Positions 17,976-30,578 of a stretch of 41,826 bases of DNA are shown here, piece after piece (within the stretch, counting starts at the first letter, position 1; each line of letters starts with the position of its first letter). The stretch spans positions 1-41,826 of IMG/VR virus record IMGVR_UViG_3300020530_000015; one strand, given 5' to 3'. The notes below the pieces were generated by a model, which saw nothing but the letters and a program-made list of their open reading frames with translations, was not told where the DNA came from and ran no database searches. Source of the DNA: a virus. Taxonomy: Duplodnaviria; Caudoviricetes. A program made the translations under genes and the position numbers.

Positions 17976-17990
17976 GATTTGTCCCCATTA

Positions 17991-18020
17991 AAAAGCCGGA
18001 GCCAATCCCGGCGGCTGGCG
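17991..18020 (-). repeat. 30-bp leader hairpin repeat, copy 2
   Basis: 28/30 identical to 18281-18310. Confidence 0.8.
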
Positions 18021-18036
18021 TGTTGATAAGCCATAC

Positions 18037-18267: not shown

Positions 18268-18280
18268 AAATTAACCTTTG

Positions 18281-18310
18281 AAAAGCCGGAGCCCATCCCG
18301 GCGGCGGGCG
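18281..18310 (-). repeat. 30-bp leader hairpin repeat, copy 1
   Basis: On the minus strand GCCGGGA-loop-TCCGGC followed by TTTT, just before RBS and ATG. Confidence 0.8.
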
Positions 18311-18369
18311 GGTAAAGTTAGCCGACTCCCGTTTTTCGTTTCCCGCGGCGGCCTGTCCGTCGCTTGTGT

Positions 18370-18404: not shown

Positions 18405-18654
18405 ACACAAAAACCGACACGAGAACGGAATTTTCGGGAATTTATTTACCGTGACAATTTGCCTCAGTTGGCATACCATCCGGAATACGACTGGGTCGGC
18501 GGGATGGCTGGGTCGAGATAGTGCAGCTCGAAAACCCGGCTAGAGGTTACACAAAAGATGACATCGTTGTTTGGCCGTCGTTCTTCGGTCATCTTCGACC
18601 CGTGACGGCTTTTCTTTGTTTTGTATTGTACGTCACGCAGCTACAATAGGAACC

Positions 18655-19171: not shown

Positions 19172-19283
19172 GAGGTCGCGGGGCTGGTGCCTCGCCGGAA
19201 CATCGGACCCAACGCAGGCGAGGTCGATCCGCCACGGTTTACACCAGCAGTTGGGAGCCAGGTTCGATTCCTGGGCGACTTCA
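19172..19283 (+). ncRNA. tRNA-like structured RNA without a canonical D or anticodon arm
   Basis: GAGGTCGC/GCGACTTC closing stem, T-arm CCAGG-TTCGATT-CCTGG, internal stems GCTGGTG/CACCAGC and CCTCGCC/GGCGAGG. Confidence 0.55.
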
Positions 19284-19367
19284 TAAACGCAGCGAGAGTG
19301 TTTTCAAGCTTTTCTGGCTCGTTGCGGCGGGCGGCGGCACGGTGCCAAAGCCCGTTTGGAAATTAGG

Positions 19368-19458
19368 AGTGATCGCTTGGGTTTACCGAGTCGCGGAGAA
19401 AAGACTATGCAAAATGAAAAAACGTTGGCCGCGACTTCGGTACAACCCATTGTTCCAC
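19368..19458 (-). mobile_element. attC-like site 1 (left end is the insertion junction)
   Basis: GGGTT/AACCC, TACCGA/TCGGTA and GTCGCGG/CCGCGAC stems with two single-base bulges, ending in GTTCCAC. Confidence 0.75.
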
Positions 19459-19685
19459 GGCCTGTCGTCTTCTGGGTGTTGGTTGGACATTGGGAAGGCA
19501 CGCCGTTTCCGATCATGCGAGGTCAAACACCGCCGCCGTTTTCGGTGTGGTCGGTGACAGACCAAAAGCATTGGGAAGAGTTGCGAAGCGAGAAGTATTA
19601 CACGCGACGGTCGAAGTCTCGGCCAGTCGCAAAAGTGGATCGTGAGTTTCAGAAACAAACCGGCAAAGACGTTTGGGAAGAATGA
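19407..19685 (+). CDS. Cassette A ORF1, starting inside the attC loop
   Basis: GGAG-N9-ATG in the hairpin loop; MQNEKTLAATSVQPIVPRP... Confidence 0.6.
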   Translation: MQNEKTLAATSVQPIVPRPVVFWVLVGHWEGTPFPIMRGQTPPPFSVWSVTDQKHWEELRSEKYYTRRSKSRPVAKVDREFQKQTGKDVWEE

Positions 19686-19981
19686 TGCAGAGCGTTAAAG
19701 ATTTGGAAACATCGCTCAAGCAGATGGAAGCAGAGCGAGATTACAACGTAAGGATGCAAAAGTTTTTCGATGAAGAAGGCCACGAAGGGGCCGCGAAGTC
19801 ATACGAACGCAAAGCGTTCTGGTATCAGATCGCGTGCAACTCGATTAAGTATGAAATCAAACAGCAGCACGAAAACGACCCATACGCTAAATGCGAGTCT
19901 CTTGAAGAGTGCTTCCAGGTTTTCATGGAAGAAGATCCTCAAATGCGAAAGTTTTTTGGAAAGGACAAAGATGGCAAGTAA
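19682..19981 (+). CDS. Cassette A ORF2, hypothetical
   Basis: ATGA overlap with ORF1. Confidence 0.6.
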   Translation: MMQSVKDLETSLKQMEAERDYNVRMQKFFDEEGHEGAAKSYERKAFWYQIACNSIKYEIKQQHENDPYAKCESLEECFQVFMEEDPQMRKFFGKDKDGK

Positions 19982-20267
19982 CACGTTTACGATTGAATTG
20001 TCAGACCAGGACCGACGACGCATTGATGCGTTGTGCAAAGCGATGTGCCCAACGGGCACGGTCGCCGTGGTCGTCTACGTGGAAACCGTAGGTTTCACGG
20101 ATGGCGTTCACCTGTTTAGCAGCGTAGACGACGCGGAGCGTTGGATGCTGCAAGAGATTCGGCAGCATGGCGGCGAGCAGTCGCATTTGACGCTGGACGA
20201 GTTTCAGAAGCGGCTCAAGCCGAACGAGGATTTTTGGATTGTTGACGTTCACGATAGGCGTCGGTAG
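19971..20267 (+). CDS. Cassette A ORF3, hypothetical
   Basis: AAGGA RBS; stop 2 nt before the cassette end motif CCGTGGAAC. Confidence 0.6.
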   Translation: MASNTFTIELSDQDRRRIDALCKAMCPTGTVAVVVYVETVGFTDGVHLFSSVDDAERWMLQEIRQHGGEQSHLTLDEFQKRLKPNEDFWIVDVHDRRR

Positions 20268-20271
20268 GTCC

Positions 20272-20361
20272 GTGGAACGATTGGATTAACCCAGCCGCCG
20301 TGGTTGGGCTTCCATCAAAGAAAACGATATTCGGCGGCTTGGGTTGAATCCTTTGTTCGCC
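20272..20361 (-). mobile_element. attC-like site 2
   Basis: Minus strand GGCGAAC-AAAGG-ATTCAACC...GGTTAAT-CCAATC-GTTCCAC, the canonical R''-L''...L'-R' layout. Confidence 0.85.
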
Positions 20362-20376
20362 TGCTTTAGTGACGCA

Positions 20377-20559
20377 ATGCAAGAACCATTACCAATGATG
20401 TGTGAGCGTAACGGATGCGACAGGCAAGCCGTCTACGATTGCGAACCGATCCCAGGGACAGCCGAACCGGGATGGGAAGACGAACCAACGGCAAGGTGCG
20501 AAGAACACTCAAAGGGTTTACTGATTCTCAGGAGGGTCATAGATGTTTCCAAAGATTAA
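20377..20559 (+). CDS. Cassette B ORF1, small Cys/His zinc-binding protein
   Basis: CERNGCDRQA...RCEEH. Confidence 0.5.
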   Translation: MQEPLPMMCERNGCDRQAVYDCEPIPGTAEPGWEDEPTARCEEHSKGLLILRRVIDVSKD

Positions 20560-20677
20560 AAAGTGGCGTGGGCGTTGGCAGTTCCAGTGGTTCCGCAAGG
20601 GGCGTCTGCATTACGGAACAGACTCTTTTCGGCGATGGCTTGCGTACCCGATTCGCGTGATTCGGGGTAAGGTCTGA
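20543..20677 (+). CDS. Cassette B ORF2, 44-aa Arg/Trp-rich peptide
   Basis: GGAGGG RBS; MFPKIKKWRGRWQFQWFRKGRLHYGTDSFRRWLAYPIRVIRGKV. Confidence 0.45.
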   Translation: MFPKIKKWRGRWQFQWFRKGRLHYGTDSFRRWLAYPIRVIRGKV

Positions 20678-20688
20678 GTCAGGCGAAC

Positions 20689-21222
20689 ATGATGATCAGC
20701 GTCAACGGAATGCAAAAGATCGGCAAGTATCCAAAGATCATGGTACTCGCGAAGATGCGAGGCAATGCCGGAATCACGGTCAAGGACGTTCAGAAGTTCA
20801 TGGATTGCGACGCTCGGCAAGCGATCAGCTATATCACGCAATGCCGGCAGAAACGCTGGCTTCGCGTCGAGGGTCGAAAGAAGCTTAACTACGTCTGGGT
20901 TGCATCGGCAGCATACGACAGCTGGCTGCATGCACAGGGCGACCCGACGTTTAAGCCCGAGAGGCTCTATCCATCGGTGGCAAGAGACATCCTTCTAAAG
21001 GGACACGACGAGGACTTCGTTCCTCGCGGACTTGGCACGCCAACGCAACACCCAATCGGCAGCGAAGCAAAGATCGAAGTCCTTCGGCAGCGGGTCGAGC
21101 AAGGCTACGAGCTTTTCCATCCAGATGACTCGAAGGAGTGGGACACGACCAAGGCTAAGCCCGTCGAGGAAATCAAGACGACGAAAATCACAGTTTCTAA
21201 CAGGAAGTTTCTAGCAGATTAA
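20689..21222 (+). CDS. Hypothetical protein, possible N-terminal winged helix
   Basis: 177 aa; C-terminal PTQHPIGSEAKIEVLRQR...LFHPDD. Confidence 0.65.
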   Translation: MMISVNGMQKIGKYPKIMVLAKMRGNAGITVKDVQKFMDCDARQAISYITQCRQKRWLRVEGRKKLNYVWVASAAYDSWLHAQGDPTFKPERLYPSVARDILLKGHDEDFVPRGLGTPTQHPIGSEAKIEVLRQRVEQGYELFHPDDSKEWDTTKAKPVEEIKTTKITVSNRKFLAD

Positions 21223-21238
21223 CCAGATAAGGAGATCG

Positions 21239-21451
21239 ATGATGTTAGTGCTAAGTCGCAAGGAAGATGAAGTGATTTTGATCGACGGCGGGATCCGGCT
21301 GCGAGTCGTTTCGATTCGCGGTGGCCGAGTGCAGCTCGGCATCACAGCACCGCCAGCGGTGAAGATTCTTCGAGAGGAGTTGGCCGAAGAGGATGACGGA
21401 CGAGGACCTAACGGAACTTTGGAACGAACGGGCGGCGATCCAACAACATGA
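21239..21451 (+). CDS. csrA: Carbon storage regulator CsrA/RsmA homologue
   Basis: MLVLSRK.DE.I.I...RVQLGITAP..VKILREEL; AAGGAG RBS. Confidence 0.9.
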   Translation: MMLVLSRKEDEVILIDGGIRLRVVSIRGGRVQLGITAPPAVKILREELAEEDDGRGPNGTLERTGGDPTT

Positions 21452-22566: not shown

Positions 22567-23973
22567 ATGGAGTACGAAGATTTTATAGACAACAAGCGTC
22601 ACATAAGCGGATTCCACGGCTTTGAGCCGATTTATCTTCCTGACTGTTTGTTTGACTTCCAGCAATCGTTGACATCTTGGGCAATTAAAAAAGGAAGGGC
22701 AGCAATTTTTGCCGACTGCGGAATGGGCAAGACGCTTATGCAACTCGTCTGGGCCGACAATGTAGTTCGCAAAACAAATAAGCCAGTCTTGATCGTAACG
22801 CCGCTAGCTGTCGGTTATCAGACCGCAGAAGAGGCAGAGAAATTTGGAATTGATGCAAGCCGGTCAAGCGATGGCAAGGCGAATGGGGCAAAGGTCTTTA
22901 TCACAAATTACGAGCGATTGCACCACTTTGACAAGTCTGCATTTTCTGGAATGGTTTGCGACGAGTCTTCAATCCTAAAAAACTTTGAAGGTGCGACGAA
23001 AGCTGCAATCACCGAGTTCATGCGAATGATGAAGTATCGTCTTCTGTGCACAGCAACAGCGGCTCCGAATGACTACGTCGAGTTGGGTACAAGCAGCGAG
23101 GCTCTTGGAGAGCTTGGGTACATGGACATGCTGGGCATGTTTTTTACTAACAAAGAAGGCAGCTTGCATCCGAATTCAAGAGCGTTTGCAACTGGTCGTG
23201 CTTTCGATGGACTGTGGCGGTTTAAGTCGCATGCAGAGCAGCCATTTTGGAGATGGATGTGCTCGTGGGCAAGAGCATTAAGACGGCCAAGCGACCTTGG
23301 ATTTGACGATAGGAATTTTGTTCTTCCTGGATTGGTCGAGGAAAAGATCTTGATTGAAGCGAGCAAGCCAGCACCTGGGATGCTGTTTGTGATACCGGCG
23401 AAAGGACTAGCAGAGCAACGCAAGGAAAAGAAGCAGACGATTGTTGAGCGATGCGAAAAAGCCGCCGAGCTTGTCGAAGGCAAGGACTACTCTGTTTCTT
23501 GGTGCCATCTAAACCAAGAAGGTGATCTGCTGGAAAAGATGATCGCCGATTCTGTCCAGGTAAGCGGCAATGACAGCGATGACGAGAAAGAAGAAAAGTT
23601 TATCGCCTTTAGCAGTGGACAGGTAAAGCGACTAATAACCAAGCCCAAGATCGCGGCATTTGGAATGAACTGGCAGCATTGCAACCACATGACGTACTTC
23701 CCTTCGCACTCATTCGAGCAGTACTACCAATGCGTCAGGAGATTTTGGCGATTTGGACAGAAGCGATCTGTACTTGTCGACACGGTAACGACAGAGGGAG
23801 AAGCCGACGTTTTTGAAAATCTTAAGCGTAAAGCTAAAGCATGCGAGCTGATGTTTGAAAGTCTCGTCGCCGAGATGAACAACGAGCTGGCAATATCCAA
23901 GGAAATCACTTTCGGAATGAACGTTATGAAGCCTTCTTTTTTTAGTGGGGAATACTGTGGCCAAAGTGCTTGA
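22567..23973 (+). CDS. SNF2/SF2 helicase
   Basis: ADCGMGKT, CDESS, TATAAPND, QCVRRFWRFGQ. Confidence 0.9.
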   Translation: MEYEDFIDNKRHISGFHGFEPIYLPDCLFDFQQSLTSWAIKKGRAAIFADCGMGKTLMQLVWADNVVRKTNKPVLIVTPLAVGYQTAEEAEKFGIDASRSSDGKANGAKVFITNYERLHHFDKSAFSGMVCDESSILKNFEGATKAAITEFMRMMKYRLLCTATAAPNDYVELGTSSEALGELGYMDMLGMFFTNKEGSLHPNSRAFATGRAFDGLWRFKSHAEQPFWRWMCSWARALRRPSDLGFDDRNFVLPGLVEEKILIEASKPAPGMLFVIPAKGLAEQRKEKKQTIVERCEKAAELVEGKDYSVSWCHLNQEGDLLEKMIADSVQVSGNDSDDEKEEKFIAFSSGQVKRLITKPKIAAFGMNWQHCNHMTYFPSHSFEQYYQCVRRFWRFGQKRSVLVDTVTTEGEADVFENLKRKAKACELMFESLVAEMNNELAISKEITFGMNVMKPSFFSGEYCGQSA

Positions 23974-24949
23974 TCAACAAATCACCGATCGATATGCGAT
24001 CTACAACGGCGACTGCTGCGATGTCATTCGCGAGCTGCCAGATGATTCGATCCATCTCTCTGTATATAGCCCTCCTTTTTGCGGCTTATACAACTACAGC
24101 AGCAGCGAGCGAGATATGAGCAACTGCCGCAGCTACCAAGAGTTTTTCGACCACTACGAGTTTCTCGTAAAAGAAATTGCACGGACAACCATTCCTGGTC
24201 GCGTTACTGCGGTTCATTGCATGGACGTTCCAGAGGGCGAAGGGTTTGCTCGGCGTCTTGTGGATTTCCCTGGCGACATTATTCGGCTTCATGAACGGTT
24301 TGGATTTAGACACATTGCAAGACACTGCGTATGGAAGGAGCCGCTGGGAGTGCGTCTTAGGACAATGGCAAAAGGTCTTGCCCATAAGCAAATCGTAGAC
24401 GACTCGATTTTATGCGATGTGGCTTCTGCCGATTATCTGCTTCTCTTTCGCAAAAAGGGAACTAACCCAGTTCCGATTGCTCACCCAACTGGACTTCACT
24501 GGTACGCAGGTTCCAGAAATGTTCCCGATGAGTTGATGAAATACCGAGGGCACCGAGGGAAGCAAACTGAGAATCGGTATAGCCATTGGATCTGGCGGCA
24601 GTATGCATCGGCATTCTGGGACGATGTTCGAATCGACAGGGTTTTGCCATACAAGGAATCTCGCGAGCCTGATGATGAAAAGCACGTGCATCCGCTGCAA
24701 TTGGATGTCATAGAACGAGTTGTCGTGCTTCGGTCAAACCCTGGTGAAGTTGTCTTTACCCCGTTCATGGGCGTCGGCAGCGAAGTATATGGAGCGTTGC
24801 TGAACGGGCGAAACGCCATTGGAGTTGAGCTTAAGTCAAGCTACTACAAGCAGGCAGTTCGAAATGTCAAAAAGGCTTTGGAGTCTGAGCCAGAGCAGGC
24901 TGGTCTGTTTGATTTGTCCGAGTCTATCGAAAGCGAGGAGCTTGTTTAA
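23957..24949 (+). CDS. N4-cytosine/N6-adenine DNA methyltransferase (beta class)
   Basis: SPPF catalytic motif; HVHPLQ; TPFMGVGS SAM-binding motif. Confidence 0.9.
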   Translation: MAKVLDQQITDRYAIYNGDCCDVIRELPDDSIHLSVYSPPFCGLYNYSSSERDMSNCRSYQEFFDHYEFLVKEIARTTIPGRVTAVHCMDVPEGEGFARRLVDFPGDIIRLHERFGFRHIARHCVWKEPLGVRLRTMAKGLAHKQIVDDSILCDVASADYLLLFRKKGTNPVPIAHPTGLHWYAGSRNVPDELMKYRGHRGKQTENRYSHWIWRQYASAFWDDVRIDRVLPYKESREPDDEKHVHPLQLDVIERVVVLRSNPGEVVFTPFMGVGSEVYGALLNGRNAIGVELKSSYYKQAVRNVKKALESEPEQAGLFDLSESIESEELV

Positions 24950-29314: not shown

Positions 29315-29363
29315 CACGGATCGGCAACCATTTTGCCGACGCTAGGAGAATGGAGGACGAAGC

Positions 29364-30155
29364 ATGGTACACAAATTTTTCGAGTGCGATGAATGCGGCA
29401 ATCATTCGGATCAATACTTTGTTCTGCTGTCTTACGGTGGTGGAGTCAACAGTACCGCATTACTGGTGGGATTGGAGGAACGCGACGAACGACCAGACGC
29501 AATCCTCTTTTCCGATACAGGCGGCGAAAAGCCGGGAACGTATCAGCACATAGAACGAATGCAAGAATGGTTAGCGTCCAAGAAGTTTCCTCCAATCACG
29601 GTGGTAAAGCAAAAGCTAACGCTAGAGGCAGATTGCTTGGAGCGTGAAACGCTTCCAGGGAAAGCCTTTGGTTTCGGATCGTGCAGCGATAGATTTAAGA
29701 TACAACCGCAAAAGAAATGGTTACGAGACAACGACATCAAAAACCCAATGTGGTTGGTCGGAATCCATAGCGGCGAAAAACATCGTGCGGAACGCACATT
29801 GAACCAAAGGACAGACGTTAGATTTCCATTGATCGAATGGGGTTGGGACCAAGAGGATTGCATCGAAGCTATTCGATGTGCAGGGTTGCCGATCCCGATT
29901 AAGTCAGCGTGTTTCTATTGTCCGTCGATGCGAAAAGCAGAAGTTTTGGCGTTAGCCAAAAGTGACCCCGAGCTGTTTCAGCGAGCGGTCGAAATTGAGC
30001 GAGTAGCGAAAGAGGCTGGCACGTTGCAAACCGTGAAAGGTTTGGGGCGTCTATGGTCCTGGGAGTCGCTCGTCAAGGCGGACGAATCACAGTTGAGGTT
30101 GCCATTGTTTGACGATGTGCAAGCCCCGATATGTGACCAGTGCGTCGATTGGTAG
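29364..30155 (+). CDS. PP-loop (PAPS reductase-like) enzyme, cassette C
   Basis: SYGGGVNST, FSDTGGE, FKIQP, FPL, KSACFYCP. Confidence 0.85.
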   Translation: MVHKFFECDECGNHSDQYFVLLSYGGGVNSTALLVGLEERDERPDAILFSDTGGEKPGTYQHIERMQEWLASKKFPPITVVKQKLTLEADCLERETLPGKAFGFGSCSDRFKIQPQKKWLRDNDIKNPMWLVGIHSGEKHRAERTLNQRTDVRFPLIEWGWDQEDCIEAIRCAGLPIPIKSACFYCPSMRKAEVLALAKSDPELFQRAVEIERVAKEAGTLQTVKGLGRLWSWESLVKADESQLRLPLFDDVQAPICDQCVDW

Positions 30156-30159
30156 ATCA

Positions 30160-30249
30160 GCAGAACGCTCACATTAAACCAGCGGCGAGAGTAAATGCTG
30201 CCATTGCAAACCAACGTTATCGCCGCTTGGTTTCAATGTGTTGTTATGC
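30160..30249 (-). mobile_element. attC-like site 3
   Basis: ACATT/AATGT, AAACCA/TGGTTT and GCGGCGA/TCGCCGC stems with the same two bulge positions; GCAGAAC...GTTATGC ends. Confidence 0.85.
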
Positions 30250-30267
30250 GGCGATTGAGGGTTAGAC

Positions 30268-30468
30268 ATGGCAAGCACGGAAATTACGGTGTCAGTAAAG
30301 GACACGGAAACATTCGCGAATCTTCTTGAGGCGTCGTTTAAGTTTTTTGCGTGGTACAACAAGACGTACCAGCAGCAACCGAGCAACCACCCCGAACATC
30401 CTTGGTGCAAACTTGGGCAAGTTCTGCACGAGTTGTCGGATCGTGGCATCGCGGAACCATCCGCATAA
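30268..30468 (+). CDS. Cassette D ORF, 66-aa hypothetical
   Basis: GAGGG RBS; TAA stop lies within the cassette-end CCGCATAAC. Confidence 0.65.
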   Translation: MASTEITVSVKDTETFANLLEASFKFFAWYNKTYQQQPSNHPEHPWCKLGQVLHELSDRGIAEPSA

Positions 30469-30474
30469 CGTTAC

Positions 30475-30578
30475 GGATCGGCGGCGTGGTGGGAACACGC
30501 AGGAGTGTTGGCTACATGCCCTCGTGGCGACGGCCACCGCTGGCTCCAGCGAAGCAGGTTCGAATCCTGCCCGATCCA
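30475..30578 (+). ncRNA. tRNA-like RNA with an expanded anticodon arm
   Basis: Acceptor GGATCGG/CCGATCC+A, D-arm GCGT/ACGC, GGAGT/GCTCC stem enclosing ~36 nt, T-arm GCAGG-TTCGAAT-CCTGC. Confidence 0.65.

Follow-up and report, generated by a model that had tools for sequence, protein, structure and literature searches.

The 41,826-nt stretch of DNA analysed here (the window; IMG/VR record IMGVR_UViG_3300020530_000015) is a lambda-like tailed phage, estimated to be 100% complete with a 12-nt overlap between its ends, and the record is found in 20 freshwater or lake runs. In its plus-strand early region, after an excisionase-like helix-turn-helix (HTH) gene, 1,314 bp separate a ribosome-binding site (RBS) from the open reading frame (ORF) that starts at 20689. 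This segment is very probably a pair of integron cassettes, B and A, bounded by attC sites in a G|AT site, into which an integron integrase (IntI) likely brought them in trans. With at least two nearby attC sites and no intI, the array is an attC cluster that lacks an integron integrase (CALIN).

An initial annotation, made from the letters alone, had noticed at this slot two hairpins of different sequence and common architecture; both exist as described, and a scan without mismatches matches them. On the minus strand both read AAC, 5 nt, 3 bp, a bulge, 6 bp, a bulge, a 7-bp stem, the loop and 6 nt, and they end in GTT at the 20276-20357 site and GAT at the 19372-19454 site, with 0 mismatches in both. 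The extrahelical bases lie on the bottom (plus) strand, C and T in attC B and G and T in attC A. The GAT at the R' end of attC B is what insertion into a GAT site is expected to leave, and the circular form would have GTT.

The sites agree with the attC definition in the available text of PMC5027507 by their cores, a 5/6-nt spacer and two extrahelical bases 6 bp apart, the second being T. Their lengths are 82–83 nt, for a published range of 57–141 nt. The first extrahelical base, usually G in that source, is G in attC A and C in attC B, in attC C of a second slot and in the attC of a cassette A' described below, whereas the last is T in all. All four stems are perfect despite their differing sequences.

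A strict scan of both strands finds exactly three sites in the window, all on the minus strand and all with 0 mismatches, at 19372-19454, 20276-20357 and 30164-30245. The same scan of 30 Markov resamples of the window gave no match with 0 mismatches and, with one mismatch, 0.03 per resample. A covariance model trained on 16 attC sites, all adjacent to Planctomycete intI, also reports three minus-strand sites of 48–55 bits and a best other match of 11.6 on the plus strand. Since the training sites came from the same scanner, the attC geometry is shared by construction, while the sequence signal is independent. Both first-slot hairpins thus passed the check by attC model that the initial annotation had proposed (55.2 and 47.9 bits, minus strand). 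The model recovers the three published TJE1 attC sites in sense polarity as well, which serves as a check on the strand call.

The complementarity of the unit ends, also claimed at the outset, is confirmed for the 9-mers at 19452 with 20270 and at 20355 with 20680, each occurring once in the window. Complementary 9-mer pairs of the GTT..AAC type within 3 kb number 19 in the window, so such ends are weighed only alongside the hairpins; as stand-alone evidence they were dropped. In other phage arrays, 57 of the 64 successive junctions are complementary at 8–9 of 9 nt.

Table 1. Features of the two cassette slots, with positions in the window
Feature	Position	Strand	Description
Phage Shine-Dalgarno	19365..19369	+	empty allele: 5 nt ahead of ATG 20689
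attC of cassette B	19368..19458	-	R'' AAC, hybrid R' GAT from target site; covariance model 47.9 bits
Cassette B	19374..20277	-	904 bp, distal; in all filled alleles seen
ORF B1	19407..19685	+	92 amino acids (aa), antisense; 21 homologs, no family
ORF B2	19682..19981	+	99 aa, antisense, overlaps B1; no family
ORF B3	19971..20267	+	98 aa, antisense; 15 homologs
attC of cassette A	20272..20361	-	canonical AAC...GTT; covariance model 55.2 bits
Cassette A	20278..20687	-	410 bp, proximal; replaced by 330-bp A' in L001, L014, X5, X11, X17
ORF A1	20377..20559	+	60 aa, antisense; no family
ORF A2	20543..20677	+	44 aa, antisense; stop 11 nt before ATG 20689
Proximal half of insertion site	20688..20700	-	L-box-like heptamer, 5 nt, G|; overlaps ORF 20689 start codons
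Resident phage gene	20689..21222	+	177 aa; HTH-like, weak Atlas lead, best score 0.85 (<0.9)
Half attC, R''-L'' arm only	29396..29429	-	inside start of PAPS-reductase-like ORF 29364-30155
Full attC of second slot	30160..30249	-	covariance model 54.3 bits
Cassette C	30166..30468	-	303 bp, complementary ends, antisense 66-aa ORF 30268-30468

Natural alleles of the slot support this reading. Joints were examined in 7 of the 20 runs, in assembled (Logan) contigs rather than reads and at 90% likeness. The predicted empty allele, a 1,314-bp skip without 19374-20687, exists with the exact predicted bases in at least two of the seven lake runs, X7 (joint 19373>20688, depth 20.6, side 29) and X11 (joint 19375>20690, depth 5.5, side 35). 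The X7 unitigs break at 19374 and 20688, and the upstream depth of 73 is close to the sum of 52 and 20.6. In X11 a GTG takes the place of the first ATG, so this is a second version of the empty allele.

Another allele carries a 330-bp unit, A', in place of A, and is seen in at least three of the seven runs (X17, X5 and X11). In the contig L001 it lies between flanks 99.8% and 98.9% identical to the window, and A' has the same boundaries as A, complementary ends and its own perfect attC. Four distinct non-self contigs divide evenly into A'+B (L001 and L014) and A+B (L002 and L013). Three allelic states of one slot thus coexist in wild populations, the filled ones being commoner than the empty one. 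The two cassettes are not a fixed pair: B is constant and the unit adjoining ORF 20689 is variable.

Near-identical copies of attC A are also joined to two other gene starts, each with a Shine-Dalgarno (SD), and stand behind a different cassette end, in loose ends from X3, X5 and X11. Among the loci from pattern scans for the flanks, 2 of 4 and 5 of 9 proved to be chance matches, and one scan was empty; none of the assembled contigs from these scans has the empty site. A separate joint, 19370>20980 in X11, X17 and X19, has an ORF 20689 homolog with a different start and no attC arm after the SD; it is possibly a cassette-free outgroup state.

Deletion of 19374-20687 reproduces the junction foreseen in the initial annotation and, at the sequence level, returns the SD to ORF 20689. 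Pairing upstream of ATG 20689 with the anti-SD motif amounts to -6.8 kcal/mol in the empty allele, -3.7 (split) in the window and +0.3 in the swapped allele, being weak or none in the filled states. In the filled allele the same SD lies 7 nt before an in-frame TTG (19377) of B1, and the attC loop supplies B1 with another SD. Between the stop of the last cassette ORF and ATG 20689 there are 11 nt with A and 1 nt with A', so that translational coupling could stand in for the SD. ORF 20689 may thereby be translated in the filled alleles.

The minus-strand target reads G|AT as claimed, with GWT at the crossover. The empty site (19366-19373 joined to 20688-20700) forms a perfect inverted repeat of 7 bp centred on a single base, and none of the window's 3,121 GWT sites has a dyad run of at least 6. 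Dyad symmetry is not supported as a rule for targets in general, 13 other reconstructed sites having runs of at most 2. The site beside ORF 20689 may serve repeatedly as an entry point of the attI type, which its positional behaviour and L/R spacing would fit. The layout of a heptamer, 5 nt and G|TT is common to host first junctions and several phage ones, a weak resemblance, and A at -8, which the phage site shows, is found in most Planctomycete first junctions next to intI, a weak match. Separately, the first junctions of L105, L096, L092, L086, L087 and L021, all in integrase-less phage arrays, share an attI-like motif that resembles host attI.

The cassettes agree with the usual description only in part. 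They have complementary ends and move as units, and they depart from the common layout in which a single ORF is coded by the attC top strand and ends at R'', for all cassette ORFs in the window are on the bottom strand, three in B and two in A. The RBS, start and first 17 codons of B1 lie inside attC B. Its homologs differ only in the attC-encoded N-terminus, and B1 also starts inside an attC in L025 and L026, the latter a phage array that holds a homolog of cassette B with the same ends. Pfam, PHROG and NCBIfam gave no credible match for any cassette protein. As a side observation, L026/G008 (41.4 kb, terminal repeats) has at least eight attC sites, including one cassette with B ends and one with A' ends, and PF00589 and phrog_1 find no integrase in it.

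This reversed polarity is common among phage arrays. All five cassette calls for the alleles of this phage are antisense (four different cassettes, B counted twice). A simple amino-acid classifier, right for 18 of 18 short window genes, gives 38 antisense, 5 sense and 4 unclear calls for 47 distinct cassettes at 21 IMG/VR loci, of which 16 lean antisense, 3 sense (one, L016, bacterial-looking) and 2 neither way. Beside Planctomycete intI the 34 cassettes are 29 sense, 2 antisense and 3 unclear, five sites without a findable start and one duplicate being excluded. Genome loci from a pattern scan, mostly Acidobacteria, have 111 sense, 13 antisense and 12 unclear among 136. The accessible text of PMC12901181, PMC11023631, PMC11511950 and 10.64898/2026.09.14.751636 has nothing bearing on phage cassette polarity.

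The initial annotation had attributed the insertion to a host integron integrase in trans, in a phage with no integrase. The window has no tyrosine recombinase by Pfam on 64 ORFs or by PF00589 and phrog_1 on the whole record, and tblastn with five integrases finds no match and no intI remnant, in agreement with the latter point. A PF00589 scan over five phage records was negative too, yet it missed the integrase of L001, so that negative is weak. Action in trans is well supported, and a host origin of the enzyme is only the likelier of two.

Two sources of the enzyme are in view. In the order to which one Pirellula metagenome-assembled genome (MAG) belongs, 18 of 121 genomes encode an IntI above the cut-off. 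A contig of this MAG is 90% identical to 604 bp of the L001 insert, and this and the shared attC family link the phage to that group, although not as proof. The other is a distantly related phage, G335, complete at 39.8 kb and with 7 proteins in common with the window at 22–43% identity. At C1:3039-7696 (L085, L157 and L160) it has eight attC sites on the minus strand with genes on the plus strand, followed by an attI-like junction and intI, which exceeds the TIGR02249 cut-off and lies directly after the array, codirectional with the cassette genes. Judged from this gene order, the G335 array is a full mirror-image phage integron. Since the host-order genomes and a phage of related architecture both encode IntI, a Pirellulales-type host integrase has about an even chance of being the source; that of a co-infecting or ancestral phage is a somewhat less likely candidate, and any other enzyme is improbable.

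The insertion would proceed as follows. Circular cassette B would fold its attC bottom strand and recombine into the double-stranded GAT site. The resulting G|TT junction, which has an L-like box lying 5 nt upstream of it, would work as attI, and later cassettes (A or A') would enter in front of B. They likely entered at this junction because insertion at attC B would place the newcomer on the far side. As the site faces against phage transcription, only cassettes coded on the bottom strand would be read from the phage early promoter. Such readout may select a phage-side pool of backwards cassettes, with the attC loop supplying an RBS and an N-terminus. If attC B recombined with the entry site, the empty allele would form again and gene 20689 would regain the SD.

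A variant holds that the backwards cassettes are built and shuffled by an IntI lineage specific to phages, and that integrase-less phages use it in co-infection or have their arrays by descent from an ancestor that possessed it. The G335 phage with its own IntI beside an antisense array of eight sites argues for this, as do the 32–40% identity of that IntI to 28 bacterial IntI loci, its long separate branch (of unsure placement) and the opposite polarity of host-side cassettes. However, IntI is found in just 1 of the 10 array-bearing phage records, the other nine being incomplete, a single-protein scan of IMG/VR for relatives of the G335 IntI found only itself, the window is without an intI remnant and the phage attC family is that of the host integrons. 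We consider the variant possible, if doubtful. It is rather unlikely that an old IntI insertion left the empty, A+B and A'+B alleles to spread today only by homologous recombination between phages. The phage does encode RecT and a DUF3799 nuclease, its relatives have many module swaps without attC, the joints listed include no excision product of a single cassette, and the attC remnant at 29396-29429, half decayed, is a sign that such sites may be lost. The perfect stems of the four differing attC sites and the joining of attC A to other genes and to another upstream end speak against it, and each allele would need a site-specific origin even so.

Two further explanations were weighed. The ordinary phage integrase of the near-identical relatives is most unlikely to act on the hairpins, even though L001 and X17 have a 1.9-kb insert that encodes, 800 bp upstream of the array, a tyrosine recombinase of 342 aa. 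This enzyme matches phrog_1 and not the integron-integrase model, has no significant alignment to four IntIs and adjoins an excisionase-like HTH and a tRNA-like remnant, so is apparently part of a prophage-like module. There is hardly any chance that RNA structures or terminators account for the hairpins and ordinary mosaicism for the indels. The hairpins do fold well as plus-strand RNA on the coding strand (z -3.2 to -4.7), but two kinds of allele have indels that end at the crossover base of attC, and there is no terminator call at the hairpins and no Rfam match. As an observation on the insert itself, L001 2024-3960 holds the phage-type tyrosine integrase, the tRNA-like remnant and a proline-rich ORF, and the window is without it at 18568/18569.

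Several points weigh against the reading of IntI-placed cassettes. Concerning the alleles, the joints listed in the seven runs include no single-cassette excision product (B-only or A-only) and no circle junction, none of the four other assembled contigs has an empty site, and the X7 downstream depth of 58.6 does not equal filled plus empty. The empty allele is known from short Logan contigs at the likeness given above, with sides of 29 and 35 where those below 30 are flagged. The RecT gene at 24949 means that alleles could now spread by RecT-type homologous recombination. Concerning the sites, they were chosen by a purpose-built scanner, so that the pair counts on A3 are descriptive only, the sites being picked for pairing. 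AttC B and attC C carry the less usual first extrahelical base, the dyad was noticed post hoc and is not general, and the CRGM motif of the E. coli attG hotspots (+6 to +9) is absent from the site. Moreover, cassettes that share a phage or an array do not count as independent, and portal similarity, with matches of only 29–34%, is uninformative on the host.

Phage CALINs are known. The available text of PMC9892861 describes tailed phages (TJE1, PH101 and P12002L), likewise with at least two attC sites and no intI, in which five of six tested attC sites were recombined by IntI1, and it suggests off-target homologous or illegitimate recombination as the origin. The three TJE1 attC sites are in sense with orf1-3, whereas in the window phage the genes are antisense and start inside attC. 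The words antisense and empty do not occur in the text seen of PMC9892861, nor do natural empty or swapped alleles, and the present phage has both.

Secondary-site insertion is known as well. According to the accessible text of 10.1101/2022.09.11.507474, a GWT target and precise excision were shown for IntI1-3, and two-cassette CALINs were proposed to arise by secondary-site insertion. Those attG sites and single attC sites lacking integron integrases (SALINs) share with the phage the GWT target, the crossover after G and expression from resident promoters. They were described there on laboratory E. coli and V. cholerae chromosomes, whereas here a natural phage population has repeated use of one site, no CRGM and antisense genes. 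The Planctomycete chromosomal integrons have the same attC family but intI in cis and mostly sense cassettes (29 of 34). Class 1 integron attC sites have the same extrahelical-base geometry defining the bottom strand; in the text available of PMC5027507 their strand selectivity serves sense expression from the Pc promoter, while the phage has bottom-strand genes that a phage promoter at the array's opposite end would read. The reversed polarity and the natural empty and swapped phage alleles appear new, neither being found in a literature search that had most subscription journals outside its reach.

Phage mosaicism is usually ascribed to homologous or illegitimate recombination, and base-exact attC ends across three alleles are natural evidence for integron chemistry moving phage genes. 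The slot illustrates attG-type insertion in the field and offers a compact system for tests, with an empty site, three attC sites and two candidate integrases. By the reversed polarity, a host integron would not express the phage cassettes, nor would the phage express cassettes of the host. The two pools could therefore stay separate while sharing an enzyme, which bears on cassette origins, and coding by attC accounts for the oddly variable N-termini seen in many small ORFs of phages. More speculatively, Planctomycete phages might run a mirror-image integron economy, with their own IntI lineage, a common pool of backwards cassettes with attC-encoded RBS and N-terminus, and attI-like sites on the start codons of resident genes. 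Phages without an integrase would then exchange accessory genes precisely, and every swap would retune translation of the next phage gene.

A second slot lies at 29.4–30.5 kb. Its content (window 29364-30469) differs in L141-L144, and L142 and L143, 98.8% identical downstream, have other content, including a different attC cassette with its right-hand end at that same site. The half attC there has no recognisable partner arm and no covariance-model match. Directly after the slot, 30475-30577 (+) has a tRNA-like fold with an acceptor stem, a T-arm and extra arms (z -3.4; ARAGORN negative), of which L142 and L143 keep both ends with a replaced middle. A small hairpin element at the left edge (29317-29353) has 10 nt in common with the tRNA-like element's 5′ end, and L141 contains three copies of it.

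Elsewhere in the phage, Pfam on the 64 ORFs identifies terminase, portal, capsid, tail, RecT, helicase, methylase, CsrA and Mom modules. Rfam has 0 matches in the window, and ARAGORN finds no tRNA either in the window or in five loci. The CsrA homolog (21239-21451, E 7e-19) is uninformative on the host by similarity, and the Mom-family protein is at 584-1291 (E 1e-51). A T-arm-like hairpin at 19258-19276 (+), 90 nt upstream of the first slot, varies in X5 and X11, and the whole region around it folds no better than shuffles. The helicase-methylase block at 22578-24948 is other sequence in L002, with block edges without attC. The leftward gene block has a 39-nt imperfect repeat (87%) at 17985-18023 and 18275-18313.
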